Positions 1 to 42,454 of a stretch of 42,454 nucleotides of DNA are shown in pieces (within the stretch, counting starts at the first letter, position 1; each line of letters begins with the position of its first letter). Below the pieces are notes generated by a model, which saw only the letters and a program-made list of their open reading frames with translations, was not told the DNA's origin and ran no database searches. The position numbers and the translations under genes were made by a program. The DNA is from a virus. Its lineage: Duplodnaviria > Heunggongvirae > Uroviricota > Caudoviricetes. The DNA lies in the IMG/VR virus record IMGVR_UViG_3300029613_000341, positions 1 through 42,454 of that record; one strand, 5' to 3'.

Positions 1-1719
1 ATGATTTTTAGGGATAGCTTGAGAGTATTACCTTATGGTCGAGTAGATAATGATTTCTTCCAGATAGAAGAAAGACGTTCATGGAATGCAGGGCGATATT
101 ATTGGTCTAATAGAAGGATTTTTGGTTATATTGGAATTACTCAATCCAGTAATAAAGAGCTGAAAGATAAGTCGGGGAGAGAGGGATTCATAAGAAACCA
201 GGCTGCAAGAGAACTGAAAACTATTATATCTAATTTGTTAACTGAACTTGCTGATAGATTTTTTGGTTCACGTTCTGATGACCGTAAAGAGCTTTTAGAA
301 CAAGTTAAGCGTGAAAAAGAGTTAAGAAAATCTGCTCAACAACAAGCTCGAAAATCAACACAAAAAAGTTTTTCAGAAGCTTTGAAGAATCAGACACCAG
401 TTCTTGATGCTTCCTTGGAGGCTGTTAAAAGGCTGAAAACTAAGCTTGATAAAACTGATGGTTCGTTAGATTTAAACTATCTTAAAATTATAGACAGTGA
501 TCTTACAAACTTAGATGCGTTGCGCAGTGAAATTAAAACGCCTATCAAACCTCCAAAACTTGGAATGTATGAAGAGAAATATAGAGACTACAGAGATAAA
601 TTTAATGAGTTCTCTGCGTATATTCTACAAATGAAGTTAGCAATTAATAAACTTGATTCTGAATTAAATAAACTTGAGCCTTCATTGTCAGCGAAAAATC
701 ACCTTGAAAAAAATCAAGGTATTATTAATTCTAAACTAACTAAGTTTAATAACACGATAGAGGAGAAGATACATTCTCTTTTAAAAAAATGGGCCGATGA
801 AATAAAGGTTGATCGAAGTGATTATTATGCTAAAACTATATCAGTTGTTGATTCAATAGATAATGATTCACAAATTGAAAATGTGTTTAATTTGCTCGAT
901 AGTTTATATGTTGAGTCAGTTGATACCCTAACTTTCAAATATCAATCAATAATAAAAGGTCTCGATAGATTATTTGAAGGTATAAACTTAGATTCAGCAT
1001 TCTCATTATCTGAAGAAGAACGCTCATATTTTGAAGAAAAAGCTAAAAGTTTAAACGCGCTTGCACAGTTAGGTATTAGTGTTGAGATAATATCTCATGA
1101 ACTTGAAGAAATGGATTCTATGGTAACCAGAGGACTAAACTCTCTTCCTACTTCTGTAAAAGAACACCCTGGTTTTTCATTGGCGTTAAATGCTCACAGA
1201 TCGCTTACTCAACAAATACGTTTCTTATCACCTTTGAAAATATCAGGTTATCAATCCAGGCAGAGAATAACTGGAAAAAATATCATGGATTATGTCCTGA
1301 AGTTCTTTGGGGAGCGTTTCGAACGGCAACGAATAACTATTGAATTTAGTGAAGAGTTTAAGCAAATCGCAATAACAGATATACCATCAAGGATCTATCC
1401 TGTTTTTACTAATATTATCAACAATGCAATGTATTGGGTCAGTCTGTCAAATAATAGGCTCATAAAGATTGGTTTTGTGAATTCTTTGGTTATCATAGCA
1501 AATTCTGGTCCGGCAATTGATACCGATGATATCCCGCGACTATTTGAACTATTTTATAGCAAAAGAGCAAATGGACATGGGGTAGGTCTGTATCTATGTC
1601 GAGAAAACCTTGCTGTTGCACATCATAAAATATGGTATTCAGAACCTGATGAAGGCGATAACTATTTAATAAAAGATGGCGCTAATTTTGTGATCCAGTT
1701 CAATGGAGTGGAGTTCTAA
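1..1719 (+). CDS. Histidine-kinase-like protein: coiled-coil-rich region, HisKA-like H-box, C-terminal GHKL (HATPase_c-like) ATPase; ORF is open to base 1, so the 5' end may lie outside the window
   Basis: Long ORF in frame 1. H-box-like I-S-H-E-L-E-E (His codon 1096-1098). C-terminal ~130 aa carry N-box-like NIINNAMYW, G1-like ANSGPAID and G2-like GHGVGLYL motifs. Visibly AT-rich compared with the phage backbone. Confidence 0.55.
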   Translation: MIFRDSLRVLPYGRVDNDFFQIEERRSWNAGRYYWSNRRIFGYIGITQSSNKELKDKSGREGFIRNQAARELKTIISNLLTELADRFFGSRSDDRKELLEQVKREKELRKSAQQQARKSTQKSFSEALKNQTPVLDASLEAVKRLKTKLDKTDGSLDLNYLKIIDSDLTNLDALRSEIKTPIKPPKLGMYEEKYRDYRDKFNEFSAYILQMKLAINKLDSELNKLEPSLSAKNHLEKNQGIINSKLTKFNNTIEEKIHSLLKKWADEIKVDRSDYYAKTISVVDSIDNDSQIENVFNLLDSLYVESVDTLTFKYQSIIKGLDRLFEGINLDSAFSLSEEERSYFEEKAKSLNALAQLGISVEIISHELEEMDSMVTRGLNSLPTSVKEHPGFSLALNAHRSLTQQIRFLSPLKISGYQSRQRITGKNIMDYVLKFFGERFERQRITIEFSEEFKQIAITDIPSRIYPVFTNIINNAMYWVSLSNNRLIKIGFVNSLVIIANSGPAIDTDDIPRLFELFYSKRANGHGVGLYLCRENLAVAHHKIWYSEPDEGDNYLIKDGANFVIQFNGVEF

Positions 1720-1720
1720 T

Positions 1721-3469
1721 ATGACAGTGGCAAATTATAATTCTCTTGTCCAGAAAACTTTCTGCGAAAATGCAATTCGTTCCGTTGTCATGATTGATGA
1801 CGATTTTCTGACGTATTCTGAATCAATCAGGGCGTTGAATAACGAAGTTGATTTAGACTACAACAAAATTGACTCATCTAAACGAGCCGCTACTCTTGAG
1901 AGCTTTTTTCAATCTAAAAATATGATTTGTGATGTTGACAATGGTTCTGTTAATTTCGATGTGGATCGGATTAGAAAATCAGATCTTATTATTGTAGATT
2001 ATCATCTTGATAATAATGCACCTGATAAAACACTTAAACTATTACAAGATTTGAAAGACTCCGATCATTTAAATATGATTGTAATATATACTAGAGAGAA
2101 TTTAGAAACGGTTTGGATGCAGATATCATCGACTCTCAAAGGTGCTCTGGATATCAACAGCTTGATCATTGACTACGATAATGAAGATGTCCAAAGTTAT
2201 TGGGAAGACGTTGTATTACCGAACTTAAATGATAATGGTAATAAAGCTCTCACAAGAGATGAAACAATAGCCTATATTAAAGACAGTAAGCCTTGTAGAA
2301 GAATTAAAAGATTAATACATGATGATGCTGTGTTGGAGGATCAAAAGGATAAAAACTTCATTGCAAAAATGATTGCAGAATATGCTGTGTCTAGAAATGC
2401 AATTATTTCTAGCAACACATCTGGCAATGTCATTCGGGGTGATGAAAGCGGAGTAAAATGGATTCAATGTGGTAATATCTTTGTCTCCCTATTTCATAAG
2501 GTTCAAGATGATCATGAAAACGATGGAGATAGGATTTGGCAAACTCTCAATGATTCTCTCATTGAATGGAAACCATCTTATTATCAGTTAATAAAATCTG
2601 AAATTCAGAATGCAATCGAAGCTGAGGCTTTATCTTTTGTAAATCATTTGGCTAACGATCATTACGGTCAAGCTGCGTGGTTAAATGAGATATTAAAATC
2701 AGACTCGCCTGATATTAGATGTAGAAATATTGACTTTGTATTTGGTAATTTATCAGAAGAGCTTTATCAAAGACTTAAAAATAATAATACGCTGGATGAA
2801 TTTATCAAAAGTGTTTTTGATAGCTATTCAAATGAATACGCTAACAGCGGAGTTGCTGCATTGCTCCAATATTGCTCTTCAAAAATGGATCTGCCATCAA
2901 ATAATGATACTTATCACGAAATGTATCATGCTTTAAATATGAATTTGTCTTCAAAGAATTTTGAAGATGGTCATATTTCTACTGGCACTATTTTCTTTGA
3001 TACAGAGTCGAACAAATGGTATTTATGTGTATCTGCGGCATGTGATTTGGTTCCTACTCAGGGTAACGACCCTCACCATGTAAGATTAAGTCCGCACAGG
3101 CTCATTAAAGTTCTGGAGCTTTTTAACGCCAGTCAGAGTAAAGCATTGCCATTTGCTGAACATTCGAAATATATATATGTAATGCATAAAAATCAAAGAA
3201 AATATCTCTCTATTTTCGAAGGGGATAAAACGCTTCCTGTTGTTGATTATATGGTGGTGTTGAATCATGGAACAACAGTTGATGGCGAAGAAAAAAATAT
3301 TATTTCTGCCGTGTTTTTAAGTAATATGGATGGCAACGTGCAAAATGTTCCTGTCCGACTCAAACTTAAATCTCAACTGAGAACTGGTTATGCAGAAAGA
3401 TATCAGGCTATAGCGTCTCAGTATAGCTCAAGGATTGGTGTGGATTATGTATCAATGATGCTACCATAA
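1721..3469 (+). CDS. Receiver (REC)-like domain protein with ~450-aa C-terminal domain of unknown function
   Basis: ATG at 1721 one base after the upstream stop (TAA 1717-1719), GGAG-type RBS just upstream. N-terminal ~130 aa have the receiver pattern: VVMIDDD acidic pair, DLIIVDYHL with candidate acceptor Asp (codon 1997-1999), MIVIYT. Remainder has no motif I recognise. AT-rich. Confidence 0.5.
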   Translation: MTVANYNSLVQKTFCENAIRSVVMIDDDFLTYSESIRALNNEVDLDYNKIDSSKRAATLESFFQSKNMICDVDNGSVNFDVDRIRKSDLIIVDYHLDNNAPDKTLKLLQDLKDSDHLNMIVIYTRENLETVWMQISSTLKGALDINSLIIDYDNEDVQSYWEDVVLPNLNDNGNKALTRDETIAYIKDSKPCRRIKRLIHDDAVLEDQKDKNFIAKMIAEYAVSRNAIISSNTSGNVIRGDESGVKWIQCGNIFVSLFHKVQDDHENDGDRIWQTLNDSLIEWKPSYYQLIKSEIQNAIEAEALSFVNHLANDHYGQAAWLNEILKSDSPDIRCRNIDFVFGNLSEELYQRLKNNNTLDEFIKSVFDSYSNEYANSGVAALLQYCSSKMDLPSNNDTYHEMYHALNMNLSSKNFEDGHISTGTIFFDTESNKWYLCVSAACDLVPTQGNDPHHVRLSPHRLIKVLELFNASQSKALPFAEHSKYIYVMHKNQRKYLSIFEGDKTLPVVDYMVVLNHGTTVDGEEKNIISAVFLSNMDGNVQNVPVRLKLKSQLRTGYAERYQAIASQYSSRIGVDYVSMMLP

Positions 3470-3540
3470 TTATTATATTTTAGGCGTGGTGATTTTTTTT
3501 CGCCATGCCTATTTTATATTTATCATCACAATGATGTTGT

Positions 3541-3957
3541 TTATTTTTGTTTAAGTCTTCTAAGCTTCATGCATTCTAATGAGAATAATAATAGAGTTGT
3601 GCTGTATATAAAGCCAGAGTTAGTTAATAACTTTAAATTTAATGCTTCAGGATTTTCACTGAGAAAGTGAAAGGCATAAACTAAGTATACAGCTAAAGTA
3701 GCCGTTCCAATTGTTGGTCCAATATCGCCTTGATCATGAGGTTCAAGGTTTACATTGAACTTGAAGATTAGCCATTCAAATCCCCAAGTAAAAAAAACAA
3801 CTAATATCATGGCTGCGAATAATTTCGCGATGTTATCTGCTGATGGATTCATCAGAACAGATTGTTTCTGAAAAAATTCACAAAGTGAGAGTCCGAAAAA
3901 AATAAAAAAAAGTGGTCTGGAACTAAATTTTTCAAAAACTTTGAATAGGGTTTCCAT
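3541..3957 (-). CDS. Small hydrophobic (membrane) protein, unknown function
   Basis: 138-aa ORF with several hydrophobic stretches (LFFIFFGLSL, LFAAMILVVFFTWGF, IGTATLAVYLVYAF), directly downstream of and co-oriented with the P4-type integrase; AT-rich. Confidence 0.35.
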   Translation of the reverse strand: METLFKVFEKFSSRPLFFIFFGLSLCEFFQKQSVLMNPSADNIAKLFAAMILVVFFTWGFEWLIFKFNVNLEPHDQGDIGPTIGTATLAVYLVYAFHFLSENPEALNLKLLTNSGFIYSTTLLLFSLECMKLRRLKQK

Positions 3958-3995
3958 TTTCTTTACCTTCAGGATTATATTAGCTATTCTGATAC

Positions 3996-5225
3996 TTAGG
4001 CTACCAGAGCATTTGATCTTTGAGCTTGAACGTAATCACTCCACCATTGCATCAAACTCTGTCGCTCTATCAGATATTCTGCACGATTGTATGCTGCGAT
4101 AATTTCATCTTTTTTCGAGTGGGCAAGCGCTGCCTCAAGAACTTCAGCTCTGAATTTACCAGACTCCTCTGCCGCTGTTCGTGCAATAGAACGCATACCG
4201 TGAGCTACAAGCTCGCCTCCGAACCCCATTCGGATGATAGCTGCGTTGGCTGTTTGTTCATGCATATGATTAAGAGGCGCTTTTATGCTGGGGAAAACCC
4301 ATTCTCTATGCCCACTTATTGATTTCATTAATTCAAGGATGCGCAAAGCTTCTTTACTCAAAGGAACTTTGTGAAGCTTTTTCATTTTCATGAAATCAGC
4401 AGGAATGTTCCAAATGCTGTTGGTTGTATCAATATCAGACCACCTTGCGCGAACGGCTTCACCCGGACGAACCCATGTCAACAATTGCCATTCAATTAGC
4501 ATACGTGTTTCCAACCGGATTGACGCATTCGTCAAAGATTCCATAAACCTTGGCAATTCGCTTGGGGGAAGGGCAGGCATATTTTGCTTTTTTGGTTTAC
4601 TGAATCTTTGACCAAGGTTGTCAGCCGGGTTGAACTCAATAAGTTCTTCAGTAGCTGCCCACCGGAAGATTTCATTCAGACGTGAAATGATACGGCGTAG
4701 AGTTTCCAATACGCCTCGTTGCTCAATAGGATCAAGGTGTTGTTTTAAGAGCTTAGGTCGGATCTCATTGATAGGGACATTACCCAGACCGGGAAAGACA
4801 TTTCTCTCTAAGCTGCGCCAGATGTCTGCTGCATGGTCTTGTGAGATACCTGATGTCTTTACCTTCTCATCTAACCATTTCCGCGCTACGGCTTGGAGAG
4901 TGTGCTCAGTAGCACTCTTTAATGCCTTCGCCTTATCGTTGTTATGGATTTGGGGATCAACACCATTTGCCAGAAAGGAGAGATATTCATCACGTAAGGC
5001 TCTGGCTCTTGCAAGGGTAAGGTGAGGATATGTCCCAAGGCTCATTTTGGTTCTTTTCTTGCTCACTGGTACTGCATACCTGAAATACCAATTTTTCTTG
5101 CCTCCTTTCGCCAAAGGAGCGATTCGTAGAATCAGACCATCACCGTCAAACAAGTTGATTTCTTTATCGGCTGGCTTGGTGCTTTTGATTTCAGTGTCAG
5201 TGAGCTTCTTAGCGATTTTTGCCAT
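3996..5225 (-). CDS. int: Tyrosine recombinase/integrase, P4 (CP4-57 IntA-like) family
   Basis: ORF 3996-5267; most likely start is the Met of MAKIAKKLTDTEIK (5225). N-terminal arm-binding region typical of P4-family integrases, C-terminal catalytic motifs (AHGMRSIART, AAYNRAEY). Lies ~170 bp from the ssrA 3'-end fragment, the usual tmRNA-int arrangement. Confidence 0.85.
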   Translation of the reverse strand: MAKIAKKLTDTEIKSTKPADKEINLFDGDGLILRIAPLAKGGKKNWYFRYAVPVSKKRTKMSLGTYPHLTLARARALRDEYLSFLANGVDPQIHNNDKAKALKSATEHTLQAVARKWLDEKVKTSGISQDHAADIWRSLERNVFPGLGNVPINEIRPKLLKQHLDPIEQRGVLETLRRIISRLNEIFRWAATEELIEFNPADNLGQRFSKPKKQNMPALPPSELPRFMESLTNASIRLETRMLIEWQLLTWVRPGEAVRARWSDIDTTNSIWNIPADFMKMKKLHKVPLSKEALRILELMKSISGHREWVFPSIKAPLNHMHEQTANAAIIRMGFGGELVAHGMRSIARTAAEESGKFRAEVLEAALAHSKKDEIIAAYNRAEYLIERQSLMQWWSDYVQAQRSNALVA

Positions 5226-5319
5226 TTTGGGACCCTCGGTTTTTGGACCCTTCTTAGTGGGTCCCATTCAGGGTGCCATAACTCGTAGTTCTCAGCAATT
5301 CTCACTGGACGACAATAGA

Positions 5320-5356
5320 CGTAAAAAAGCCCGCAGAGCTTGTGCTGTGTGGGCTT
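5320..5356 (-). terminator. Imperfect hairpin plus T5 on the minus strand; probable remnant of the original ssrA terminator
   Basis: Minus strand reads GCCCACACAGC-ACAA-GCTCTGCGGGC followed by TTTTT, ~35 bp downstream of the displaced ssrA 3' fragment. Confidence 0.3.
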
Positions 5357-5390
5357 AGTAGACTTCATTGAACTTCAAACAACTAAAAAG

Positions 5391-5435
5391 TGGTGGAGCT
5401 GGCGGGAGTTGAACCCGCGTCCGAAATTCCTACAT
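5391..5435. repeat. att direct repeat (45 bp identical to the ssrA 3' end at 41395-41439)
   Basis: TGGTGGAGCTGGCGGGAGTTGAACCCGCGTCCGAAATTCCTACAT occurs at both positions; the copies diverge immediately afterwards (ACC here, CCT at 41440). Confidence 0.85.
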
Positions 5436-5549
5436 ACCATTTTTAATATAGTGAAAACAGTTATTTATATTTAAAAACAGAATGTTAGTATTTTGCGGTG
5501 TTTGTCCGTTTTAGGCATTTTTAATGCTCTGCCGCCAAAATGCCGCCAC

Positions 5550-6569
5550 TTATTTACCTTGAGAATCTATAGGTAAGATCCCCTTAAAAATCAAAAAATC
5601 TGGATCGTAAGCATAATTGGCTAAAAAATCACCGTTATTGGCAGTTGCTTGGAAAATAATTGTATTTTGATCAATTAGCATGTACAGAGATATCAATATA
5701 TCTCGTAATCCACGAAACATTTCTTTTATTTCTTTTTCATCTGAAAATGATGTTTCTATTCCTAAGTTTGATATCGGATCAAAAATCTCAAATTTGTTGA
5801 CTTCTCTTTCATAATTAACTCCTAGTTCTCTACACAGCCATACCACTTGTGCTTCAATGTTCTCTAAATTAGATATGTTAACTTGTTTTGGGTAAAGCTG
5901 ATTGTATCTTGCTATTTCATGCCCAATGTTGTTATATATATTTTCTAATTTTTCAAGGAATGATTTATCAACTTCATTGTTATATCCAGTGGAGATTGAG
6001 GATTTTGTGAATATTTTTTTATATAATGAGTAGGTATGAACTACAGATAGTTTAATTGTGTCTTTTTCGAAAGTTGTATTATCTCGACGAGAAAGGGTAA
6101 ATGACGGTAACGTTTTAAACATATCCGAATAATTCTTGAGGTGAGCGTAGTAAGCATCACTGCGGTTTTTCTCAGTCACTAGATCTATCTGTTGCTGTGT
6201 TTTCCTAATTTGATTTTCCGTTTGTATTGTTCTGTGAATGTTAGCGACTATAGCTACAAAGGGTATCGAAAGGGAAAGAAGAGCGATAGGCAACTTGCTT
6301 ATTTCAATGAAGTTTGAAAATCCATCAGCATCAAATTGAGGAGAGTGTCCCATCCATGAGAATATACCGAAGTATAAGGATGAGATAATAGGTATTCTGA
6401 TGGATTGTTTAAATAAATTTTGTTTTGTTAGCCTTTCCTCAGTCATTTCAAAATAATTATTATTTTTGTTTTTTGTGTATTCAATAAATAGATATATTAA
6501 ATAAAGAATTATAAGGAACGTAGATATTTCTGGTTTTTTTATATAGCTAATTACGAATTCTTGAGTCAT
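5550..6569 (-). CDS. Membrane protein of unknown function (prophage moron between attL and int)
   Basis: ORF 5550-6581; the Met at 6569-6567 overlaps the int stop as ATGA (TGA 6568-6566), suggesting translational coupling. About three N-terminal hydrophobic helices, ~200-aa soluble C-terminal part. Strongly AT-rich. Confidence 0.5.
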   Translation of the reverse strand: MTQEFVISYIKKPEISTFLIILYLIYLFIEYTKNKNNNYFEMTEERLTKQNLFKQSIRIPIISSLYFGIFSWMGHSPQFDADGFSNFIEISKLPIALLSLSIPFVAIVANIHRTIQTENQIRKTQQQIDLVTEKNRSDAYYAHLKNYSDMFKTLPSFTLSRRDNTTFEKDTIKLSVVHTYSLYKKIFTKSSISTGYNNEVDKSFLEKLENIYNNIGHEIARYNQLYPKQVNISNLENIEAQVVWLCRELGVNYEREVNKFEIFDPISNLGIETSFSDEKEIKEMFRGLRDILISLYMLIDQNTIIFQATANNGDFLANYAYDPDFLIFKGILPIDSQGK

Positions 6570-7594
6570 GGTGTGGTCCATTTTAATCTATATAAAGGGT
6601 TTTTTGATACTGCATCCTCTAAATGATCAGGTGCAAAATGTGCATAAACCATAGTCATTTTTATATCCGAGTGACCAAGGATGTCGCGCAACACGAGTAT
6701 GTTTCCGCCGTTCATCATAAAATGGCTAGCGAATGTATGGCGCAGTACGTGGGTGCATTGGCCCTCCGGTAGATCTATACCTGCCCGTTTTACTGCTCGT
6801 TCAAAGGCTTTTCTACATGGTGAGAATAACTTCCCTCTGTTCTTTGGGAGTTCGTCATACAGCTCCTGTGATATGGGTACTGTTCTGTTTTTCTTGCCTT
6901 TGGTCTTTGTATAAGTAATTCGGTATTTCGATATTTGGTGGCCCTGTAGGTTTTCTGCTTCACTCCATCGCGCACCAGTAGCCAGGCATATTTTTGCAAT
7001 CATTAGTAGGCTGGTGTTTTGAGATTCGGCGCAGGCATTAAGCAGGCGTTTGATTTCGTCCGTGGAAAGAAAAGCCAATTCACCTTCAGCAATTTTGAAG
7101 GTTGGAAGCCCTGCCAGTGGGTTTGGTGCGGACCAGTGCCCTAGTTTTTTCAATGTACCGAACACCGATGACAGATTGCGTTGTTCAAGATTTACCGTGC
7201 GGGGCTTAACCGGTGACATGAGCACGCCATCTTCGTTTTTGATCTCACCTTTTAATCTGGCTTCCCGGTACTTTGTGAAATCACCTGCTGTCAATTCAGA
7301 AGCGATGGGATCGCCAAGCCCATTACAAATGATTTTTAGCTTAGCCATTAATCGCTTAGGGTCAGCGAGTGTCTGACCGTACAGGGAATACCATTGCTCA
7401 ATCACTTCTGACAGTGGTCGCCGATCTTCCTTTTCTCCCAGCCAAGGTTTCTTGTTTACCTCATCCATGGTGAAATTCTCAAACGCAATGGCTTCGCCTT
7501 TCGTCGCAAATTGTTTGCGTACGCGTTTGCCATCTCTCCCGTTTGGGTAGCATTCACATAACCACTTTCCGTTCGGCTGTTTTCTGATCGTCAT
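6566..7594 (-). CDS. int: Phage integrase (P2/186-type tyrosine recombinase)
   Basis: 342-aa ORF with catalytic motifs HVLRHTFASH and LGHSDIKMTMVYAHF; recalled similarity to P2 Int; immediately downstream of cI. Confidence 0.9.
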   Translation of the reverse strand: MTIRKQPNGKWLCECYPNGRDGKRVRKQFATKGEAIAFENFTMDEVNKKPWLGEKEDRRPLSEVIEQWYSLYGQTLADPKRLMAKLKIICNGLGDPIASELTAGDFTKYREARLKGEIKNEDGVLMSPVKPRTVNLEQRNLSSVFGTLKKLGHWSAPNPLAGLPTFKIAEGELAFLSTDEIKRLLNACAESQNTSLLMIAKICLATGARWSEAENLQGHQISKYRITYTKTKGKKNRTVPISQELYDELPKNRGKLFSPCRKAFERAVKRAGIDLPEGQCTHVLRHTFASHFMMNGGNILVLRDILGHSDIKMTMVYAHFAPDHLEDAVSKNPLYRLKWTTP

Positions 7595-7596
7595 GA

Positions 7597-8235
7597 TTAG
7601 ATGCTCTTAATCACTTTTACCACACGCCCTACAACGTCTACGTCATCAACTGCACATTCAAAGGTTGTTTCTTCCTGATGAACAACAAGCTTATTTCCGG
7701 GAATTCGAGCTACTTTTACGATGCTTTTCACTCCATCAATATCAACAAGCCAGGAGCCATTACTGATCTGTTTTACAGATACATCAACAATAAAACTTTC
7801 TGTTGTCGTTTGTATGAATAGATAGTTTGACGAGTCGCCCTCAACCAACCTGCTATCTAATAAAATTTCGTCATATGATTGAAGTTCACCATTTCTTAAC
7901 TCTGTGTATTTGATACTGGGAGCTACGATTTTAGAAAGTGGTCTAATTGTGACGTCATTATCATTTTTGAGAATGTTTACGTCACTGTTATCTGCATACA
8001 TATCACCCTGTCCGGTTGCCAACCAAAGAAGCGAGATCCCGGTTTCTAGTGCACATTGAATTACCCATTCTGCTGGAAAACTATCTCTTAAGTATCTGTT
8101 TGCCATGGTACTTTTTGATACTTTTAAGTGTTCGCAGAGTTGTTGGCGTGAGCTGAAATTGTAGGCTTTTATCAGCCTGTTGATGGCATCACGACCCCCA
8201 CTATCGTTTCCACCCTTGATTAGACTCATAATCAA
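7597..8235 (-). CDS. cI: Immunity repressor, phage 186 CI-like
   Basis: Matches my recollection of 186 CI over its length (NRY.R, CALETG..L.WL.TG.G, GLWLVDI.G..SI, FEC..DD....GRVV.V); divergent from the early operon. Confidence 0.8.
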   Translation of the reverse strand: MIMSLIKGGNDSGGRDAINRLIKAYNFSSRQQLCEHLKVSKSTMANRYLRDSFPAEWVIQCALETGISLLWLATGQGDMYADNSDVNILKNDNDVTIRPLSKIVAPSIKYTELRNGELQSYDEILLDSRLVEGDSSNYLFIQTTTESFIVDVSVKQISNGSWLVDIDGVKSIVKVARIPGNKLVVHQEETTFECAVDDVDVVGRVVKVIKSI

Positions 8236-8269: not shown

Positions 8270-8345
8270 CCATTCATGGTTTGAAAAGCAAAACCAAACC
8301 ACATAAAACGAGATGAGACGATTACAAACTAAGAGATACTGCACT

Positions 8346-8594
8346 ATGAGCAACGACATTTCAATTCGTGTACCAAAAGTGATGGCGACACCAGCTGAGT
8401 TCGCGGAATGGGAAGGCTACTCTCGCGGTTCGGTATATCAAATGATTCATAATGGTAAGCTCGCTAAGTTTTTAGAAAAAAAGGAAAAACCGAAAGACAG
8501 AGTATGTATACGTTACCTTGAGTACAAAAAGGAACAAGTCAGGAAAAACATGGGCCAATCCAATTTCAACTTTAATGTCATCGTTGGTGGCTAA
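8346..8594 (+). CDS. Cox/Apl-like excisionase and repressor-antagonist (small DNA-binding protein)
   Basis: First rightward gene after cI; segment ATPAEFAEWEGYSRGSVYQMIHNGKLAKF resembles the P2 Cox helix-turn-helix region as I recall it. Confidence 0.6.
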   Translation: MSNDISIRVPKVMATPAEFAEWEGYSRGSVYQMIHNGKLAKFLEKKEKPKDRVCIRYLEYKKEQVRKNMGQSNFNFNVIVGG

Positions 8595-14277: not shown

Positions 14278-14591
14278 GAAACGTTGCCCCCAGGAGGATT
14301 CATTCTGATGGGGGCTAGTTTGGGCAACGAGTGAAATAAGGTGTAAGGTCATTTTGATAAATGATCGTCTGCTTTGTGCAAGATGCAAACGTTTCTTCTG
14401 CTAACTTTCGTTAATTAACGAATGGCAGACTAATTCGCAACGGATAATCTGAATTTTGTAAGATTATGGGCATTTCTATAAAATTTACTAATAATAACCT
14501 TACAATGTACACTACCGATTGAATTTTCCATAGTTGGCCTTTGGCTCTACTTACCATCTATGTTTATGTATTTTATCAAAATGGACTAAAA

Positions 14592-16484
14592 ATGAACAAT
14601 ACGTACATCAAAGACTATATAGAATATTACCTTAGCCTTACAACTGAACCTCAATACGCCATTATGCTTAAAGGTGCTTGGGGATCAGGTAAAACTTGGT
14701 TCATTGAACAAGTTCTTGAAGAATATAAGCAGAAGAATTCAGAGTTTAAATTTCTAAAAGTGAGTTTGTATGGCGTCAACTCTATTAAACAGATTGAAGA
14801 TGAGTTCTATCGTCAACTTCATCCTGTCCTATCAAACAAAGCCCTTATCTTTGGTGCAAATGTACTAAAAAATACGCTTAAGGCTACTTTCAAGATCGAT
14901 CTCAATGGCGATAATAAATCTGACGTTGATGTCAATACCAATGTTCCCACCATTAATCTTAACGATTTTAGTAGAAAACCAGATGGTTTTGTGCTGGTCT
15001 TTGATGATATCGAGAGAGCTGGTATAGATTTACCAATTTTATTTGGATATATAAACCACTTTGTAGAAGTAAACGGATACAAAGCGATCTTGGTTGCCAA
15101 TGAAGAAGAAATAATCAATAGAGAAAAGCGAATAAATAATGATGATGAGAAATCTAGCAGCGAATACATGAGAACAAAAGAAAAGCTTGTTGGTAAAACA
15201 TTTGAAGTAACGTCAGATTTACATAGTGCTTGTAATGTTTTTTTGGGCGTAATTAGCAGTTTACACGTTGCTAATATATTTAAAGAAGATATGCAGGCCA
15301 TAGAAGACATCTATGTGTCGGCGAAATATAATAATCTAAGACACTTGAGGCAGTTCTTTCTTGATGTACAACGCATCATTTCCCTTTTGGGAAATAAATA
15401 TGTCAGCAACGACGATTTTATGAGGGTATTTTTCCAGCAGTTGTTAATTTTCTCGATAGAGTACCGGGGAGGGAACCTTAACTACGAGGAATTCGATTCA
15501 ATCAGCAATGTTAATTATGGTATGTTTTTAGGTAAAGAGCGTACCAAAACTAAGTATGACATGATCGTCGAGAAATATTCATCTCCTGTATTAACCGAGA
15601 AGTTACTGGATGGTGCGTACTGGAGGGAGCTAATCTGTGATGGAAAGGTAACGAGTGAACTTCTCGCTCAGTTGGATATTACGCGATTTTTTAGAAGCAC
15701 CGATGCCCAAGCATGGGAGTATTTGTGGAACTATCGAGAACTTAATGAAACTATGCTTAATGAGCAGTACGCCATTGCCAAGGATAATCTATTTTCAGGT
15801 AAGATCACTTCCTTAGGTGAACTCCTGATGACCGCGAGTATTTTGCTGGACATGGCGAAAGAAGGTCTAACAACAGATGATGTTCATGATCTCATAAATG
15901 AGACAAAACAGAATATAAATAATTATTATAATAGACTTAGAGCTGAAGATATACATAAGGAATATGCGCAAACGCATTATAACGAATTAAGGGCATGGCG
16001 TGGCTTTGGTTTTCTTGACAGGGATAGCGATGAATTCAAACTCATTATTGAGCATATTGAGATAGCGAAGAAGAAACGGTTTGATGAATCAATTCCGGAA
16101 TTTGCGTTGCAGTTCAGCGATGAGTTGCAAAGGGGAAACTTATCGTTTGTATCTGAATTGAGTCATTCTAATAATAGGCAGTTAAATCTTCATAATGTGC
16201 CTTTTTTACACTTGGTTCCTCCTGAAGTTTTCATTGAAAGCTATAGGAAACTTGACCCAGTCCTCATGAGGAAACTGGCATTTAGCTTGCGGAATCGTTA
16301 TTCTGATGGGGATGCTAGAACCAGACTGACCGAAGAATACAACTGGTTGATTAACCTAAAAGAGATAGCTGTAGATTTCACTCAAAACGCAGCCAATAAC
16401 TCCTTTCAGGTTTTTCACGTAAAGTTTTTTATTGACTATGTATTAACTAGCGCAATCAAATTCTTTACTGAGGGAACTGATTAA
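14592..16484 (+). CDS. P-loop NTPase (Walker A GAWGSGKT, Walker B VLVFDD; possibly KAP-type), ~630 aa
   Basis: ATG at 14592 (ORF open from an alternative TTG at 14541); Walker A and B motifs present; long C-terminal region without motifs I recognise; strongly AT-rich; followed by a terminator. Confidence 0.7.
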   Translation: MNNTYIKDYIEYYLSLTTEPQYAIMLKGAWGSGKTWFIEQVLEEYKQKNSEFKFLKVSLYGVNSIKQIEDEFYRQLHPVLSNKALIFGANVLKNTLKATFKIDLNGDNKSDVDVNTNVPTINLNDFSRKPDGFVLVFDDIERAGIDLPILFGYINHFVEVNGYKAILVANEEEIINREKRINNDDEKSSSEYMRTKEKLVGKTFEVTSDLHSACNVFLGVISSLHVANIFKEDMQAIEDIYVSAKYNNLRHLRQFFLDVQRIISLLGNKYVSNDDFMRVFFQQLLIFSIEYRGGNLNYEEFDSISNVNYGMFLGKERTKTKYDMIVEKYSSPVLTEKLLDGAYWRELICDGKVTSELLAQLDITRFFRSTDAQAWEYLWNYRELNETMLNEQYAIAKDNLFSGKITSLGELLMTASILLDMAKEGLTTDDVHDLINETKQNINNYYNRLRAEDIHKEYAQTHYNELRAWRGFGFLDRDSDEFKLIIEHIEIAKKKRFDESIPEFALQFSDELQRGNLSFVSELSHSNNRQLNLHNVPFLHLVPPEVFIESYRKLDPVLMRKLAFSLRNRYSDGDARTRLTEEYNWLINLKEIAVDFTQNAANNSFQVFHVKFFIDYVLTSAIKFFTEGTD

Positions 16485-16549
16485 CTTTTTGTTGATTAAC
16501 ATAGGCAATATTATTAGAAGTACTAGGGATAGTCAGTAAAATTATTAAC

Positions 16550-16581
16550 GTCCGCTTCGCTCAAAGCGGACTTTGTGCTTT
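16550..16581 (+). terminator. Rho-independent terminator
   Basis: GTCCGCTT-CGCTCA-AAGCGGAC stem-loop followed by TTTGTGCTTT, ~65 bp after the NTPase stop. Confidence 0.55.
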
Positions 16582-16769
16582 ATAAAAACGAGAGTTTTGT
16601 TTTTCAAGCGGTCATTCGGTTACGGGATTTCACTTCCCCCGTAAGTGCATGACTATGCCGCATGAGATCGCATGATCGTTTGCGGATCGTTTTTGCTAAG
16701 GCACGCCAGAACTGGTGGGATTTTGCGTAGATCATGCGCCTGCATGAAAACCGCTACATAAAGCGGGCA

Positions 16770-16788
16770 GGCGTGGCGGGGATACGAG
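16770..16788. other. Candidate cos site (cohesive-end region)
   Basis: GGCGTGGCGGGGATACGAG followed by GCGCGCTG; the first 13 bases match my recollection of the 186/P2 cohesive end (GGCG[T/A]GGCGGGGA). Coordinate and identity are tentative. Confidence 0.3.
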
Positions 16789-16896
16789 CGCGCGCTGTAT
16801 GCCTGAAGTGGCTAAAATAGTATCTGTCATAGGTACAACTTAGTGTAGTATCATCCATATAATCCATTGAAATATAATCGACTCTCATTAGAGGTG

Positions 16897-17895
16897 ATGA
16901 TGAACGGAATCTGGTACGAAAACACTCATACACGCATTCCTAATTTTGAAACAACAGTACATCAAAAGCACAAATTCGGTTACGCTTATGAAACAACAAG
17001 TCATTTTGTGCATCTGTATGGGCGTGACGTGGGATTTAATGTAATATCAGTTGGGTTAACTGTTATTGAGCAACGAAGTGGAACTCTCAATGATTGGGTT
17101 CGGAGAGTATTTGGGGCTCAGAACATATCTCCTTTAGATAATGAAATTGGACATGTAACTAGGGGAGTGTGGCGGCCATCCTTATATTATGTCAATGATA
17201 CAGAAACAGCATTAGGTATCGATGAGTTTGAAAAAAGAGCAACAGAGCAAGCTCTAAGAGTTTTGATAGAAAAACTCGATGATATTTTTCTATATGTAGA
17301 ACCAAGTGCCCATGGTTTGATTTCTTACAGTCATAAATGTAGAGAGCTATTAATTCTTGCTTGTACTGAGGTTGAAAATCAATGGGTGTCAATCATTGGT
17401 AATTCGAATTTATCTCGTTCAAATGGTCGATACTCCACAAATGATTATGTGAAATTATTAGATAAGTGTTATTTGTCTGAATATAAAATTCAATATTTGA
17501 ATTATGACGGATTAAGGCATTTCAAACCTTTTGATGGGTGGAATGCAAGTACCCCTACAACATCTTTGTCATGGTATAATGCATATAATAAAACTAAACA
17601 TGATAGATCAGGAGCATTCCACTTTTCCACTTTAGAAAATGTGATGGATGCAGTTGCTGCTTGTGTTGTAATGTACTGTGTAAAATATGGCCCGTTTAGC
17701 TTATTGGAAGCCAATACGTCTCTATCAACGATCGTTAATCAAAACTTTTCAATTTCATTAGATAATAGCAATCCAGCAAGTTATTACATTCCTGAAATTG
17801 AACTTCCACCGGATACAAGAACGGATTTATTAATTTATGATTGTTATCGAGAAAACCATAATAAAGCATGGGTCACTGATCCCCTAGTGCTCTAA
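16897..17895 (+). CDS. Hypothetical protein (~332 aa), unknown function
   Basis: ORF 16867-17895 (alternative TTG); ATG at 16897/16900 with GAGGTG RBS; AT-rich; no motif I recognise. Confidence 0.5.
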   Translation: MMNGIWYENTHTRIPNFETTVHQKHKFGYAYETTSHFVHLYGRDVGFNVISVGLTVIEQRSGTLNDWVRRVFGAQNISPLDNEIGHVTRGVWRPSLYYVNDTETALGIDEFEKRATEQALRVLIEKLDDIFLYVEPSAHGLISYSHKCRELLILACTEVENQWVSIIGNSNLSRSNGRYSTNDYVKLLDKCYLSEYKIQYLNYDGLRHFKPFDGWNASTPTTSLSWYNAYNKTKHDRSGAFHFSTLENVMDAVAACVVMYCVKYGPFSLLEANTSLSTIVNQNFSISLDNSNPASYYIPEIELPPDTRTDLLIYDCYRENHNKAWVTDPLVL

Positions 17896-18578: not shown

Positions 18579-18625
18579 TCTGGGTTCATCAAATTCATGG
18601 CCATTATCACAACGCCACTCTGATT

Positions 18626-18919
18626 TTATAGTTTTCCTTTGAAGAATTTTTTTGCTTTGCAGTCTAGGTTAATACATTTGTTACGCTTCTTATTAATGCT
18701 CTGTGTTTCTAATTTTTCAATAACAGATATACCTAAAATATTTTCTCTGTTGGTAATAATATCACCGTCTTTTACATTTTTGTGGTTCGCTACAAAACTG
18801 TCATAGCGATAGAAAACTGATGAGTCATCGGGATAACTATCATTTCCCCAGTATCTAAGATCGTCTTTCTCAATTGCCTTAAAAAAAACCATACTTGCTG
18901 TACCATGAACTTTTCCCAC
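18626..18919 (-). CDS. Small ORF immediately upstream of the HNH ORF (likely the N-terminal part of the same gene, separated by a frameshift)
   Basis: 97-aa ORF ending ...CKAKKFFKGKL; an A7 run (T7 on plus strand, 18647-18653) lies where the two frames overlap. Confidence 0.4.
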   Translation of the reverse strand: MGKVHGTASMVFFKAIEKDDLRYWGNDSYPDDSSVFYRYDSFVANHKNVKDGDIITNRENILGISVIEKLETQSINKKRNKCINLDCKAKKFFKGKL

Positions 18920-18976
18920 TAATCAAATTTTGGTTTGTTCTATCGAACAGCAAAGCATGTTGATATACAAGAGAAA

Positions 18977-20008
18977 TCATCCCAAAGAATATGGCTCAAA
19001 TCGCAAAATTTTTTGTTCTAACCAGTCATTTACTTCACGCATCCTTTTTTGCAACGGTAATAATTCATTTCGCACAAACACATTTGCCGCCTTCTCCACA
19101 TCCCCAAACCCCCCAACATTGCTAGGCATTATCCCCATCATTTGTGGTGGCACACGATGCGCTGCCATCATGTCATCCCGACTCACGTTCTTGATGTTAA
19201 GAAATTCATCCTTCGCTGCGACTTCTGATAGCGGGATAATCTGAAGCCCGTCTTTTTTGCCGTTAGGCGAGTACATAAACAGGTTGCGGAAGTTACCCGG
19301 ACCTTTGGCACTTTTCATCGCGTTGCGGAGGTTGTTTACATCCTCCTGGTTCTGCGCGGCGTCGGTCATGTACATGATGAAGCCTGCATGACTGCCGTTG
19401 ATGTAATACTTACGGCGGAACAGCGTGGCGGACTCATTGAGCAGGGCGGACGGAATGGCAGAAAGATAGCCGGGCAGGCCGTAGATCTCTTGGTTAATGT
19501 CCGGTTCCATCAGATGAAAAATGCTGCCTTTCGTGAACTGATACGGCTGGGTTGTCATACCGTATTGCACAAACCAGTAGGTATTCAGGTCTAACCCGCG
19601 TCGGGTGTATTTTGCCAGAGCAGGCTCAAGGGCGATAACTTCACCGAAGCGGTTCGTGCGTTTCTCCAGGTAGGCGTTACCAAATACCAGATAGTCCTGC
19701 ACAAAACGTGAAAAAGCCTGCTGGCTGAGCAGCGGGTGAGGGATGTAGGTACTGGTCAGAATGTTGCATTTCACCGCAATTGGTGAACTGTGATGCACGG
19801 CGGCGCGGAAGGTGCGCGCCAGTCCGTCAAAACTCACTGGCGGCTCATACCAGCGATCTGTCTGTACGCATTCCACATAGTCCAGTAGTTCACGGCGGTC
19901 CAGAACCGGAACGGGATCGCCGAAGCTGAATGCTTCGGCTGAAGTCTGGTTTTTATGCTGGGTCTGTTTCGTCGCCGCAGCGCGGTTCTTCTTACTCTTT
20001 CCCATCAA
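18977..20008 (-). CDS. Q: Portal protein (P2 gpQ family)
   Basis: 343 aa; position and recalled similarity to P2 Q; stop abuts the terminase start. Confidence 0.9.
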   Translation of the reverse strand: MMGKSKKNRAAATKQTQHKNQTSAEAFSFGDPVPVLDRRELLDYVECVQTDRWYEPPVSFDGLARTFRAAVHHSSPIAVKCNILTSTYIPHPLLSQQAFSRFVQDYLVFGNAYLEKRTNRFGEVIALEPALAKYTRRGLDLNTYWFVQYGMTTQPYQFTKGSIFHLMEPDINQEIYGLPGYLSAIPSALLNESATLFRRKYYINGSHAGFIMYMTDAAQNQEDVNNLRNAMKSAKGPGNFRNLFMYSPNGKKDGLQIIPLSEVAAKDEFLNIKNVSRDDMMAAHRVPPQMMGIMPSNVGGFGDVEKAANVFVRNELLPLQKRMREVNDWLEQKILRFEPYSLG

Positions 20009-25242: not shown

Positions 25243-25458
25243 ATGACGCTTGAGCGAATCAGCGCCTTTATCACGTATTGCATCGCCGTCGTGCTGGCCT
25301 GGCTGGGCGATTTGTCCATCAAGGATGCCTCAACGCTGGGTGGCCTGATGATCGGTGTGCTGATGCTGGCTATCAACTGGTACTACAAACACAAAGCCTA
25401 CCAGCTTCTGCGCGACGGGCAGATCACGCGGGAGGACTATGAATCCATCAATCGTTAA
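25243..25458 (+). CDS. Putative holin
   Basis: 71 aa with two hydrophobic segments, immediately upstream of the endolysin. Confidence 0.6.
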   Translation: MTLERISAFITYCIAVVLAWLGDLSIKDASTLGGLMIGVLMLAINWYYKHKAYQLLRDGQITREDYESINR

Positions 25459-25951
25459 ACGCTGCCTTGTCGGGACCGTGCTGGCTATTGCTGCCACGCT
25501 GCCGGGTTTTCAGCAGCTTCACACCTCCGTGGAGGGGCTGAAACTGATTGCCGATTACGAAGGCTGTCGTCTGCAGCCGTATCAGTGCAGCGCGGGTGTC
25601 TGGACCGATGGCATTGGTAATACGTCGGGCGTCATTCCCGGCAAAACCATTACGGAACGACAGGCAGCAGAAGGGCTGATTTCCAACGTGCTACGTGTGG
25701 AGCAGGCGCTGGAAAGGTGTGTGAAGCAACAGCCGCCGCAGAAGGTGTATGACGCGGTGGTGTCGTTTGCCTTCAACGTGGGAACGGGCAATGCCTGCAG
25801 TTCCACGCTGGTGAAATTGCTCAACCAGCGGCGCTGGGCGGATGCGTGCCGACAGTTGCCGCGCTGGGTTTATGTGAAAGGTGTGTTTAATCAGGGGCTG
25901 GATAACCGCCGTGCGCGGGAGATGGCCTGGTGCTTACAGGGAGCAAACTGA
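25439..25951 (+). CDS. K: Endolysin (phage lysozyme; hydrophobic N-terminus suggests a SAR-type signal anchor)
   Basis: 170 aa; N-terminal LVGTVLAIAATL then a lysozyme-like region (LIADYEGCRLQPYQCSAGVWTDGIGNT); GGAGGA RBS. Confidence 0.8.
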   Translation: MNPSIVKRCLVGTVLAIAATLPGFQQLHTSVEGLKLIADYEGCRLQPYQCSAGVWTDGIGNTSGVIPGKTITERQAAEGLISNVLRVEQALERCVKQQPPQKVYDAVVSFAFNVGTGNACSSTLVKLLNQRRWADACRQLPRWVYVKGVFNQGLDNRRAREMAWCLQGAN

Positions 25952-40788: not shown

Positions 40789-41271
40789 TTATTCATCTGG
40801 GATCTCACCCGTTTCAAGAAAATGTATAAAGCCAGGCTCATCTATGATGATTGTGCCTTTCATCCTGGCTGCCGATACTTTTGATGGGCCTGCATTGTAA
40901 CCGCAACAGAGCATCTGAAGGCTTTGGGTTACAGAGGTTCTTACCGTTAATCCTTGTTCATTCGCCTTATCAACCAATCTTTCTTTATCTGCTTTCTTAA
41001 ATCCGGTGAAACACACATCGAATGTATTTTTTTTCGGACCAGATTGCTTAGTGAGATGTGAGTAGTTTTCGGGGAGGAATGACGCGCATTCCTGAATGGC
41101 TTGTTCTGGTGAATCGTACTGTTTAAGAATGCGGTCTTTTCGGAAGGTTTTTATTCGATCGGTGTTCTTACAAATGCCCTGTATATGATTTTCGCTATAA
41201 CTGATGCTCTGTATAGAGTGAACACCGATACGACCATTTGCATTGATGTAAACAAAGTGAAGTTCTTCCAT
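40789..41271 (-). CDS. Small protein with C-terminal BRCT-like domain and unknown N-terminal domain (moron next to attR)
   Basis: 160 aa; C-terminal FDVCFTGF...QGLTV.TSVTQSLQMLCCG.NAGPSKVSAARMKGTIIIDEPGF resembles the BRCT domain of NAD-dependent DNA ligases; AT-rich; lies between ogr and att. Confidence 0.55.
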   Translation of the reverse strand: MEELHFVYINANGRIGVHSIQSISYSENHIQGICKNTDRIKTFRKDRILKQYDSPEQAIQECASFLPENYSHLTKQSGPKKNTFDVCFTGFKKADKERLVDKANEQGLTVRTSVTQSLQMLCCGYNAGPSKVSAARMKGTIIIDEPGFIHFLETGEIPDE

Positions 41272-41354
41272 GTGAAACCTCTTTGCATGATTTCAAGATG
41301 GCGACAGGCAAGATGGACGCAAAAGTCTGTCGCCATTTTGCCGCCACTACCAAA

Positions 41355-41388
41355 GAAAAAGGGGCTACGCTTTCACGTAACCCCTTGA
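41355..41388 (-). terminator. Rho-independent terminator of ssrA
   Basis: Minus strand reads GGGGTTACG-TGAAAGC-GTAGCCCC followed by TTTTT, just downstream of the tmRNA 3' end. Confidence 0.5.
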
Positions 41389-41394
41389 TTTATT

Positions 41395-41439
41395 TGGTGG
41401 AGCTGGCGGGAGTTGAACCCGCGTCCGAAATTCCTACAT
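41395..41439. repeat. att direct repeat (phage core overlapping the ssrA 3' end)
   Basis: Identical to 5391-5435. Confidence 0.85.
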
Positions 41440-41757
41440 CCTCGGTACTACATGCTTAGTCAGTCTTTACATTCGCTTGCCAGCTGCGGACGGACACGCC
41501 ACTAACAAACTAGCCTGATTAAGTTTTAACGCTTCAACCCCAGGCAGGGCTTCCACGCGATCTCTTTTGGGTTTGACCTCTCTTGATCCCCGTCCTAAGA
41601 GCGGAGGCTAGGGAGAGAGGGCTCTAAGCAGGTTATTAAGCTGCTAAAGCGTAGTTTTCGTCGTTTGCGACTATTTTTTGCGGCTTTTTACGAGGCCAAC
41701 CGCCCCTCGGCATGCACCTTGGGTTTCGCAAATCCCGTCGAATCCAGAATCAGCCCC
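41395..41757 (-). ncRNA. ssrA: tmRNA (SsrA), 363 nt
   Basis: Reverse complement begins GGGGCTGATTCTGGATTCGACGGG and ends ...GTTCAACTCCCGCCAGCTCCACCA; contains the tag reading frame GCAAACGACGAAAACTACGCTTTAGCAGCTTAA (ANDENYALAA-stop); matches E. coli ssrA as I recall it. Confidence 0.95.
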
Positions 41758-41971: not shown

Positions 41972-42454
41972 TTAACGGTGGGCGTTTTTCATGATACGTG
42001 CTTTATCCACCTGCCATTCGCGTTCTTTGATATCTGAACGTTTATCGTGCTGTTTTTTACCTTTGGCGACGCCGATTTTCACTTTGCACCAGGCATTTTT
42101 CCAGTACAGGGAGAGCGCCACTACGGTATAGCCTTCTCGATTGACGCGACCGTACAATGAGTCCAGTTCGCGCTGGTTGAGAAGTAACTTGCGGGTACGG
42201 GTAGGATCGCACACCACATGCGTGGAGGCCACGGCCATTGGCGTGATGTTAGCGCCAAACAGAAATGCCTCTCCGTCACGCAGAAGGACGTAGCTGTCGC
42301 TGATATTGGCTTTTCCTGCGCGCAGGGATTTAACCTCCCAGCCTTGCAGGGCAAGTCCCGCTTCGAACTCTTCTTCGATAAAGTATTCGTGACGGGCGCG
42401 CTTGTTAAGCGCGATGGTCGCTGAACCAGGTTTATGTGCTTTTTTCTTCGTCAT
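41972..42454 (-). CDS. smpB: SsrA-binding protein SmpB
   Basis: 160 aa beginning [47 protein letters not shown]; matches E. coli SmpB as recalled; start codon is at the last bases of the window. Confidence 0.95.

Follow-up and report, generated by a model that had tools for sequence, protein, structure and literature searches.

Probable successive integration of an IntA-type island, now a truncated remnant, and a P2-like prophage at the 3' end of the Escherichia coli tmRNA gene

Introduction

The tmRNA gene, ssrA, is the most enriched of the integration targets recorded in Islander, which has also catalogued 125 tandem arrays (Hudson, Lau and Williams 2015, PMC4383910). The prophages Fels-2 and SopEPhi are reported to integrate in this gene (Pelludat et al. 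2003 and Williams 2003, as cited in PMC3448106 and PMC10107115). Their excision leaves ssrA wild type, while that of some others leaves it mutated (PMC10107115 Table 1). The CP4-57 island of E. coli K-12 is also able to excise (PMC10107115). More than one element may occupy the same gene: the ssrA of Salmonella Typhimurium LT2 is listed as holding both Fels-2, with an integrase of the P2 type, and Stm27X, with one of the P4 type (Williams 2003 via PMC10107115 Table 1). Tandem occupancy of ssrA by P2-type and P4-type elements is thus already published for this strain and is an ordinary, described kind of arrangement.

Here, we analyse a locus of the same kind in a stretch of 42,454 nt taken from the viral record IMGVR_UViG_3300029613_000341 (hereafter the window). 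A P2-like prophage lies in it between an intact ssrA and a displaced copy of the end of this gene, and beyond the displaced copy stands a second integrase gene, of the IntA type. We propose, with a probability of roughly 0.87, that two elements integrated here one after the other, each in a site-specific manner, at the 3' end of the tmRNA gene of E. coli.

Results

A prophage bracketed by an exact repeat of the end of ssrA

The sequence TGGTGGAGCTGGCGGGAGTTGAACCCGCGTCCGAAATTCCTACAT, the last 45 nt of ssrA, occurs exactly twice in the window, once within the intact gene and once, in direct orientation, as a displaced copy 36,004 bp away (Table 1). No other exact direct repeat in the window comes near it in length. 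The original prediction had placed a 45-nt copy of the ssrA 3' end at one side of a P2-like prophage and the intact gene 36 kb off at the other, and both are where it put them. The intervening element has the signature used by Islander, since the intact gene and its cognate 3' fragment bracket an interval that encodes a tyrosine integrase. One might suspect that such a repeat is fortuitous, or a duplication introduced by assembly, and has nothing to do with integration; there are, after all, only two copies of it. This is extremely improbable. Shuffled sequences give an expectation of 0 matches, and the repeat coincides at once with the 3' end of ssrA, with the attP core of the free phage Cartapus and with the junction in genomes where the site is empty. 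Moreover, at least 75 complete genomes, each assembled independently, show the same architecture.

The displaced copy was also scanned permissively with Rfam, and the only confident alignment to the tmRNA model there covers these 45 nt. The idea that ssrA survives beyond them, which had been prompted by a 177-nt tmRNA annotation in NZ_AP022036.1, was rejected on this ground.

The prophage is complete and of the Fels-2/186 type. Apart from the genes listed in Table 1 it encodes a tail fibre and a scaffold protein, and matches in PHROG and Pfam identify P2-type morphogenesis and replication modules. Its DNA aligns with records of the Peduoviridae type over up to 73% of its length at 97% identity, and its integrase is 92.9% identical in amino acids to that of Fels-2 and 93.2% identical to that of Cartapus. 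The lysogeny switch may be of the 186 type, with CI (7597-8235) and CII both found; an ORF without Pfam match at 8313-8594 is put in the position of Apl/Cox by comparison with Cartapus and Fels-2.

Cartapus carries an identical 45-nt segment between a cargo gene and a gene for a 160-aa protein, the latter corresponding to 40789-41271 of the window. When the two ends of the prophage are joined they are collinear with the attP of this phage, the right arm matching at 121/123 positions, the core at 45/45 and the left arm at 91/114. An integrase of the Fels-2 class is found together with an attP core that equals the 3' end of ssrA. Each arm contains a GCCGCCAC motif, and we regard both as candidate arm-type sites of Int. 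The right arm also contains a terminator (-19.8 kcal/mol, z = -4.75 relative to shuffles), hence the phage replaces both the 3' end of ssrA and its terminator. As the two 45-nt copies are identical, excision would be expected to restore a wild-type ssrA, as for Fels-2 and SopEPhi, joined to the terminator of the island described below. The prophage is predicted to be competent for excision.

Table 1. Coordinates of the features discussed in the text (position 1 is the first nucleotide of the window).
Feature	Position	Strand	Basis or remark
Histidine-kinase-like ATPase, cargo of the remnant	1-1719	+	Pfam HEF_HK and HATPase_c
Response_reg_2 receiver-like protein, cargo of the remnant	1721-3469	+	Pfam PF19192, E = 3.7e-31; start as in RefSeq
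138-aa hypothetical protein of the remnant	3541-3957	-	phrog_6556, function unknown to PHROG
IntA/P4-type tyrosine integrase of the older ssrA island, 409 aa	3996-5225	-	Pfam Arm-DNA-bind_3, Phage_int_M and Phage_integrase
GGGACCC / GGACCC / GGGTCCC repeats between terminator and int	5229-5265		Motif positions
Displaced island-borne ssrA terminator	5323-5356 (hairpin 5327-5356, T6 run)	-	Terminator scan
Displaced copy of the last 45 nt of ssrA	5391-5435	-	Int-proximal att junction of the prophage and former attL core of the IntA island
Fels-2/186-type P2-like prophage, about 36 kb	5436-41394		CI, CII, gpA, terminase, portal, capsid, sheath, tape measure, gpD, Ogr
GCCGCCA-N4-GCCGCCAC motif, left attP arm	5530-5549	+	Same motif in Cartapus attP and in Fels-2
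Prophage integrase, Fels-2 type	6566-7594	-	Pfam Int_N and Phage_integrase
GTCGCCA-N4-GCCGCCAC motif, right attP arm	41329-41347	+	Conserved in Cartapus
Phage-supplied terminator now serving the intact ssrA	41352-41386	-	12-bp stem and T-run; identical in Cartapus attP
Last 45 nt of ssrA within the intact gene, the other att copy	41395-41439		Exact repeat
Intact ssrA (tmRNA)	41395-41757	-	ARAGORN, tag ANDENYALAA; Rfam 295.8 bits
smpB, chromosomal flank	41972-42454	-	Pfam SmpB, E = 1.5e-57

An IntA-type integrase behind the displaced end of ssrA

On the minus strand, the displaced copy is followed by a hairpin with a T-run and then by an integrase gene. The hairpin (-15 kcal/mol, z = -4.86 relative to shuffles) had been predicted and was recovered, with a run of six T rather than the five first counted. 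It is homologous to the ssrA/CP4-57 terminator of K-12. The reading frame of the integrase is open over 3996-5267. Since the alignment with K-12 IntA begins at Met15 of this ORF, we take the gene to start there, at 5225, which is the likely start and also the one given in RefSeq relatives. The protein passes the NCBIfam model PRK09692 with 440.6 bits (cut-off 434). Along its full length it shares 48% identity with K-12 IntA, with the VRPGE, HGMRS, LAH and AYNR motifs aligned, and it is 86% identical to the integrase that heads a complete island in strain 300709 (NZ_CP025903.1). The domains, the model score and the similarity to IntA all agree with the P4/IntA-like assignment first made.

The whole region of fragment, spacer, terminator and leader aligns with its counterparts in CP4-57 and in strain 300709. 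The locus thus has the two marks of a CP4-57-like island, a P4-family integrase with an Arm-DNA-bind_3 domain and its location directly past the 3' end of ssrA behind a terminator carried by the island, and the predicted succession of ssrA end, terminator and integrase turns out to be homologous to the ssrA-terminator-intA unit of K-12. The short repeats that separate terminator and integrase are conserved in strain 300709, and K-12 has repeats of the GGCCCA type at the same place; they are candidate arm-type sites of the IntA-type integrase. The permissive Rfam scan also gave a partial match to IsrM (RF02763) at 5323-5400. This match covers only the two ends of the model and misses 253 of its positions. 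Because its 53 bits fall far below the gathering score (376) and the centre of the 329-nt model is missing, it was rejected as an sRNA gene. In LT2 isrM is located just upstream of STM2763, so that we interpret the match as homology between leaders.

The two integrase types use ssrA to different extents. Elements of the Fels-2 type share a block of 45-47 nt of identity with the gene, and those of the IntA type share only about its last 11-18 nt, as seen in psaA of K-12 and in the attR of strain 300709. The 45-nt fragment contains the short block, and the displaced copy is therefore at the same time the junction of the prophage and the core of the old attL of the island. Hence, the original prediction of one att core common to both elements must be modified: the cores are nested, not the same.

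Truncation of the left element

Position 1 of the window is also the first base of the kinase-like gene, and for this reason the view further left was taken from relatives: two tandem genomes, one genome with the island only and 10 further contexts of the exact kinase-like protein. One and the same order was seen in 13/13 of them. Core genes (gabP-glaH) are followed by a ygaQ that lacks its N-terminus, an IS3, the kinase-like and receiver-like genes, the 138-aa ORF and the integrase. The element thus amounts in all 13 to 5.4 kb, comprising the integrase, one small ORF, which matches nothing in Pfam, NCBIfam or PADLOC, and the kinase-like/receiver-like pair. The IS3 and the truncated ygaQ are seen only in these relatives, which are 99.9-100% identical to the window over 1-5390. 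All 10 contexts of the exact kinase-like protein carry both, and none among them has an untruncated island. The IS3, of 1,258 bp, lies immediately upstream of the kinase-like gene and abuts the 5'-truncated ygaQ. Its flanks read TCT and CGC and it therefore lacks a 3-bp target duplication. The same interval in K-12 contains CP4-57, its attR (psaA), ypjA, pinH, ypjB, ypjC, ileY and a full-length ygaQ. In the relatives, ypjA through ileY are missing beside the IS3.

A further ssrA-derived repeat upstream of the island, on whose existence the original prediction had let the idea of tandem occupancy depend, was sought within 20 kb leftward in the relatives, using patterns of 30, 20, 15 and 16 nt (the last in the form of K-12 psaA) and Smith-Waterman alignment. 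None was found, the best alignment scores being 15 and 13, against a mean of 13.3 and a maximum of 19 in shuffled sequences. Neither a distal, psaA-like att copy nor the native flank was encountered over these 20 kb. The sequence ATCATGATTGGACGG..., which follows the IntA-type attR in both K-12 and strain 300709, is absent from the window and from 13/13 relatives. A tblastn search with AlpA found no homologue in 1-5390, and the same query matches strain 300709 with E = 2.9e-11. The GC content of the remnant is 36.5% (34% over 1-3469), that of the prophage 49.4% and that of the chromosomal flank 50.8%. We also considered that the element might be a P4-like satellite paired with a P2-type helper, and rejected this, as its 5.4 kb contain no alpha primase-helicase, sid, psu or delta.

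The IS3 without target duplication, the lack of a third repeat, of the native flank and of AlpA, and the low GC together indicate that the left element is the head of an IntA-type island, that is, a truncated remnant without an att site of its own and, by these signs, unable to excise. The initial picture of two full elements in tandem thus gives way to one of a prophage beside a 5.4-kb relic. The missing third repeat shows that the island has decayed, and not that it never existed.

It could be argued that the left region is simply core chromosome with a resident integrase gene, and that the prophage is the sole element that ever entered this site. In the relatives the region is indeed fixed and almost invariant within its lineage, has no distal att and runs into core genes, and the assembly collection lists the kinase-like protein in 19,002 blocks. 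Yet, its GC content is far from that of the chromosomal flank, and K-12 and strain 300709 have different islands at this very place, with homologous integrases (48% and 86% identity), leader and terminator. Each of those islands ends at a degenerate copy of the ssrA 3' end, after which comes a chromosomal flank common to both strains, and it is this flank, along with ypjA-ileY, that is missing beside the IS3 devoid of target duplication. We thus consider the core-chromosome explanation very unlikely. The homology of leader and integrase with CP4-57 and with strain 300709 shows that the left element was once an island.

Occupancy of ssrA among E. coli genomes

Comparison with genomes lacking the prophage had been suggested along with the original prediction. 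We joined 5136-5435 to 41440-41739 as an in-silico empty site and searched for it in 5,426 complete E. coli genomes. The junction was covered over at least 80% of its length in 965 of them, and the best 15 records listed are 100% identical to it. In the examples that we opened, the order is smpB, ssrA, integrase, hypothetical ORF, receiver-like gene, kinase-like gene, IS3 and truncated ygaQ, i.e. the remnant stands directly at ssrA. The unoccupied site that belongs to the Islander signature, equal to the sequence minus the prophage, thus exists in related genomes. The tandem junction between the island and the left end of the phage occurs in at least 75/5,426 genomes, a minimum since divergent phage arms escape megablast, and the junction between the right end of the phage and ssrA in 174/5,426. 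Fels-2-type phages therefore lysogenise ssrA in several downstream contexts. The arrangement is common in E. coli and of a known kind.

The two elements vary very differently among these genomes. The remnant is 99.87-100% identical in the 13 relatives, whether they carry a prophage or not. In the five tandem relatives, the initial 6.5 kb of the window's prophage has a coverage of only 76-81%, at 87-91% identity. The cargo slot next to int is found in four states in the same five genomes: a 506-aa GapS1, an unrelated 343-aa ORF (in two genomes), a 353-aa ORF, or nothing. In strain 300709, where the island is a different one, this slot holds an anti-phage dCTP deaminase gene.

Discussion

Comparison with described occupants of ssrA

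The prophage resembles Fels-2 and SopEPhi in its target at the 3' end of ssrA, its integrase, its CI and CII, which point to a switch of the 186 type, and its P2 structural genes. In the Fels-2 record the attP is split into 24 + 23 nt and has the same sequence at its end; the block of identity is 45 nt here. Unlike these phages of Salmonella, the present one has E. coli as host and other cargo genes, namely the 343-aa ORF next to int and, in a second variable slot, a KAP NTPase (PADLOC candidate PDC-S49).

LT2 offers the same combination of a P2-type prophage and an island with a P4-type integrase at one ssrA, as far as the table listing tells. The leader preceding the P4-type integrase in LT2 is homologous to ours, as the IsrM match reveals. 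Compared with Stm27X as listed, the P4-type element is here reduced by IS3 to a 5.4-kb remnant with no distal att. CP4-57 (intA, alpA, with psaA as attR) shares with the remnant an IntA-type integrase past ssrA, an island-borne terminator and repeat motifs. But it spans 22 kb, has AlpA and retains a degenerate attR, neither of which the remnant has, and the two integrases are only 48% identical. The closest arrangement is that of strain 300709, with ssrA, a P2-like prophage, a fragment of the ssrA 3' end and an IntA-type integrase in succession. There, however, it is the prophage that suffered an internal deletion, while the island is complete, of about 21 kb and with an AlpA-like gene, and ends at the degenerate attR CGCCAGCCCCA in front of ypjA, which makes it a true tandem with three att sites. 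As in the tandem arrays of Islander, a regenerated target gene and a displaced fragment mark the ends of the element. Those arrays demand a fragment and an integrase for each member. The prophage has both and the remnant has only the integrase, so that the locus is not a tandem array in this strict sense.

Order of the two integrations

The original prediction regarded the order of insertion as undecidable from the window. Comparison with other genomes does allow it to be inferred, by parsimony across genomes and not by phylogeny. The remnant hardly varies, be a prophage present or absent, while the prophages are unlike one another, which suggests that the island came before the phage. The simplest history would be that of an island that integrated first and was then truncated, followed by several independent integrations of phages into the intact ssrA.

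Under this scenario, an island of the IntA/P4 type would have crossed over within the last ~11-18 nt of ssrA, placing its own spacer, terminator and integrase gene directly after the gene. A deletion associated with IS3 would then have cut the island down to 5.4 kb, and the distal part of the island would have been lost together with attR and with the chromosome as far as the middle of ygaQ; the remnant, no longer able to excise, would have become fixed in a large lineage of E. coli. Later, a P2-like phage of the Fels-2 type, whose attP holds a copy of the 45-nt ssrA 3' end followed by a terminator, would have entered the intact gene by means of its own Int. From then on the copy brought by the phage would complete and terminate ssrA, and the old 45 nt, the island terminator and the island integrase would find themselves 36 kb downstream.

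The reverse order may be envisaged, in which the phage entered an unoccupied ssrA and the island integrated later into the displaced 45-nt fragment with its native downstream sequence. The IntA-type core of ~11-18 nt lies inside this fragment, which could thus in principle act as attB, the gene order ssrA-phage-fragment-island is compatible with such a history, and an ancestral prophage might have been lost precisely, time and again, before the site was lysogenised anew. But the remnant, lacking attR and AlpA, could not have moved after its truncation, and the very same truncated remnant, 99.9-100% identical, is directly at an intact ssrA in many genomes, while the tandem genomes hold different phages. 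A phage-first history would thus require an ancient phage, entry of the island, truncation, many precise losses and several re-lysogenisations. This makes it very improbable, if slightly less so than the core-chromosome explanation weighed above. We thus retain the history in which the island precedes the phage.

Implications

These results fix the exact limits of the prophage at 5436-41394, with the att copies on either side of it, and show that ssrA currently runs on a 3' end and a terminator supplied by the phage. They also carry a warning for annotation, as partial 'tmRNA' features at such displaced fragments are artefacts. One might speculate that the integrase of the remnant is kept intact as a resident gatekeeper that alters the stability, the excision or the re-entry of Fels-2-type phages at ssrA, since its core site is nested in both of the 45-nt copies that flank the prophage. 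If so, it might bind or recombine at the junctions of the prophage. We hold this to be very improbable. The results also identify the 'second island' as a non-mobile remnant, and their significance beyond annotation is small. For annotation pipelines, the locus is a clean natural example of how tandem arrays decay, in which rules that strictly demand a fragment plus an integrase miss the older member.

Variable gene content of the prophage

The 343-aa ORF next to the integrase gene (int) of the P2-like prophage matched a single family, phrog_17460, which carries the label 'unknown function', and found nothing in Pfam, NCBIfam or PADLOC. In related prophages the corresponding place beside int is taken by GapS1, by an anti-phage dCTP deaminase, by a RES-domain protein or by another ORF, or else it is empty. 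Such differing contents make this position a variable cargo or defence slot. A second variable slot of the prophage encodes a 647-aa P-loop NTPase of the KAP family, with a match (E = 1e-159) to PDC-S49, a candidate system in PADLOC. The next ORF in this slot, of 342 aa, falls in phrog_19461 (function label unknown). In one relative this second slot is occupied by the retron Ec67 reverse transcriptase.

Function labels conflict for the last prophage gene before ssrA: its PHROGs family is called 'DNA ligase', whereas the record of Cartapus, a free phage with the same attP core, gives a putative exonuclease. This gene has no Pfam match, and its PADLOC match, to PDC-S48, is weak. Each attP arm of the prophage also carries one copy of a direct motif that is kept in Cartapus and in the Salmonella prophage Fels-2, and we regard these motifs as candidate arm-type Int binding sites.

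Features of the prophage, the island remnant and the sequences at their borders
Feature	Position	Strand	Remarks
Two-gene module: kinase-like ATPase (HEF_HK + HATPase_c) and Response_reg_2 protein	window 1-3469	+	island remnant; domains in brackets
Partial Rfam match to Salmonella sRNA IsrM	window 5323-5400	-	53 bits vs gathering score 376
177-nt 'ssrA transfer-messenger RNA'	NZ_AP022036.1 (L002) 25391-25567 = window 5391-5567		RefSeq annotation
Direct motif G(C/T)CGCCA-N4-GCCGCCAC	window 5530-5549, 41329-41347	+	one copy per attP arm of prophage
343-aa ORF, GC 31%	window 5550-6581	-	between att site and prophage int
Second variable slot of prophage	window 14541-17895	+	between replication gene and portal gene
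160-aa gene	window 40789-41271	-	final prophage gene ahead of ssrA
IS3 copy, 1,258 bp	NZ_CP114592.1 (L001) 18622-19879		between 5'-truncated ygaQ and island remnant

The island remnant and its left border

The only cargo remaining in the island remnant is the pair of kinase-like and receiver-like genes, with a GC content of 34%. Domains of the HEF_HK and Response_reg_2 type have been described in two-component-like elements linked to restriction-modification and paraMORC systems (bioRxiv 10.1101/2020.08.26.268516 / PMC8011034). PADLOC gave no match for the kinase-like protein, and its match for the receiver-like protein was weak (E = 0.0028). In the assembly collection, 19,002 blocks list the kinase-like protein in this exact form.

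To the left of the remnant, the same junction of truncated ygaQ, IS3 and remnant occurs in all the relatives that were opened (13/13). The IS3 copy lacks a target-site duplication (flanks TCT and CGC). This junction marks a deletion in which the stretch from ypjA to ileY was also lost, and with ileY a tRNA-Ile gene.

The remnant integrase gene is split in NZ_CP025916.1 by an insertion of IS100 (IS21 family), so that this strain, at least, can do without the integrase. Separately, NZ_CP026085.1, a 4.83 Mb genome named E. coli 'DH5alpha', has the remnant integrase directly at ssrA, with 100% identity. The same position in K-12 holds CP4-57 with intA, which is 48% identical to the remnant integrase. 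The 'DH5alpha' label of this genome looks doubtful.

Traces of ssrA in RNA annotations

The RefSeq 'ssrA' of NZ_AP022036.1 spans the displaced ssrA fragment and the adjoining phage arm, and several further genomes with the tandem arrangement carry the same annotation over both. Because just 45 nt of it are genuine ssrA sequence, this feature is an annotation artefact. The match to IsrM is restricted to the 5' end of the model and the terminator, with 253 central positions missing, and in Salmonella Typhimurium LT2 isrM sits directly upstream of STM2763. Taken together, these two observations suggest a P4-type integrase island as the source of part of the IsrM sRNA, namely the island's leader, made of the ssrA tail and its terminator.
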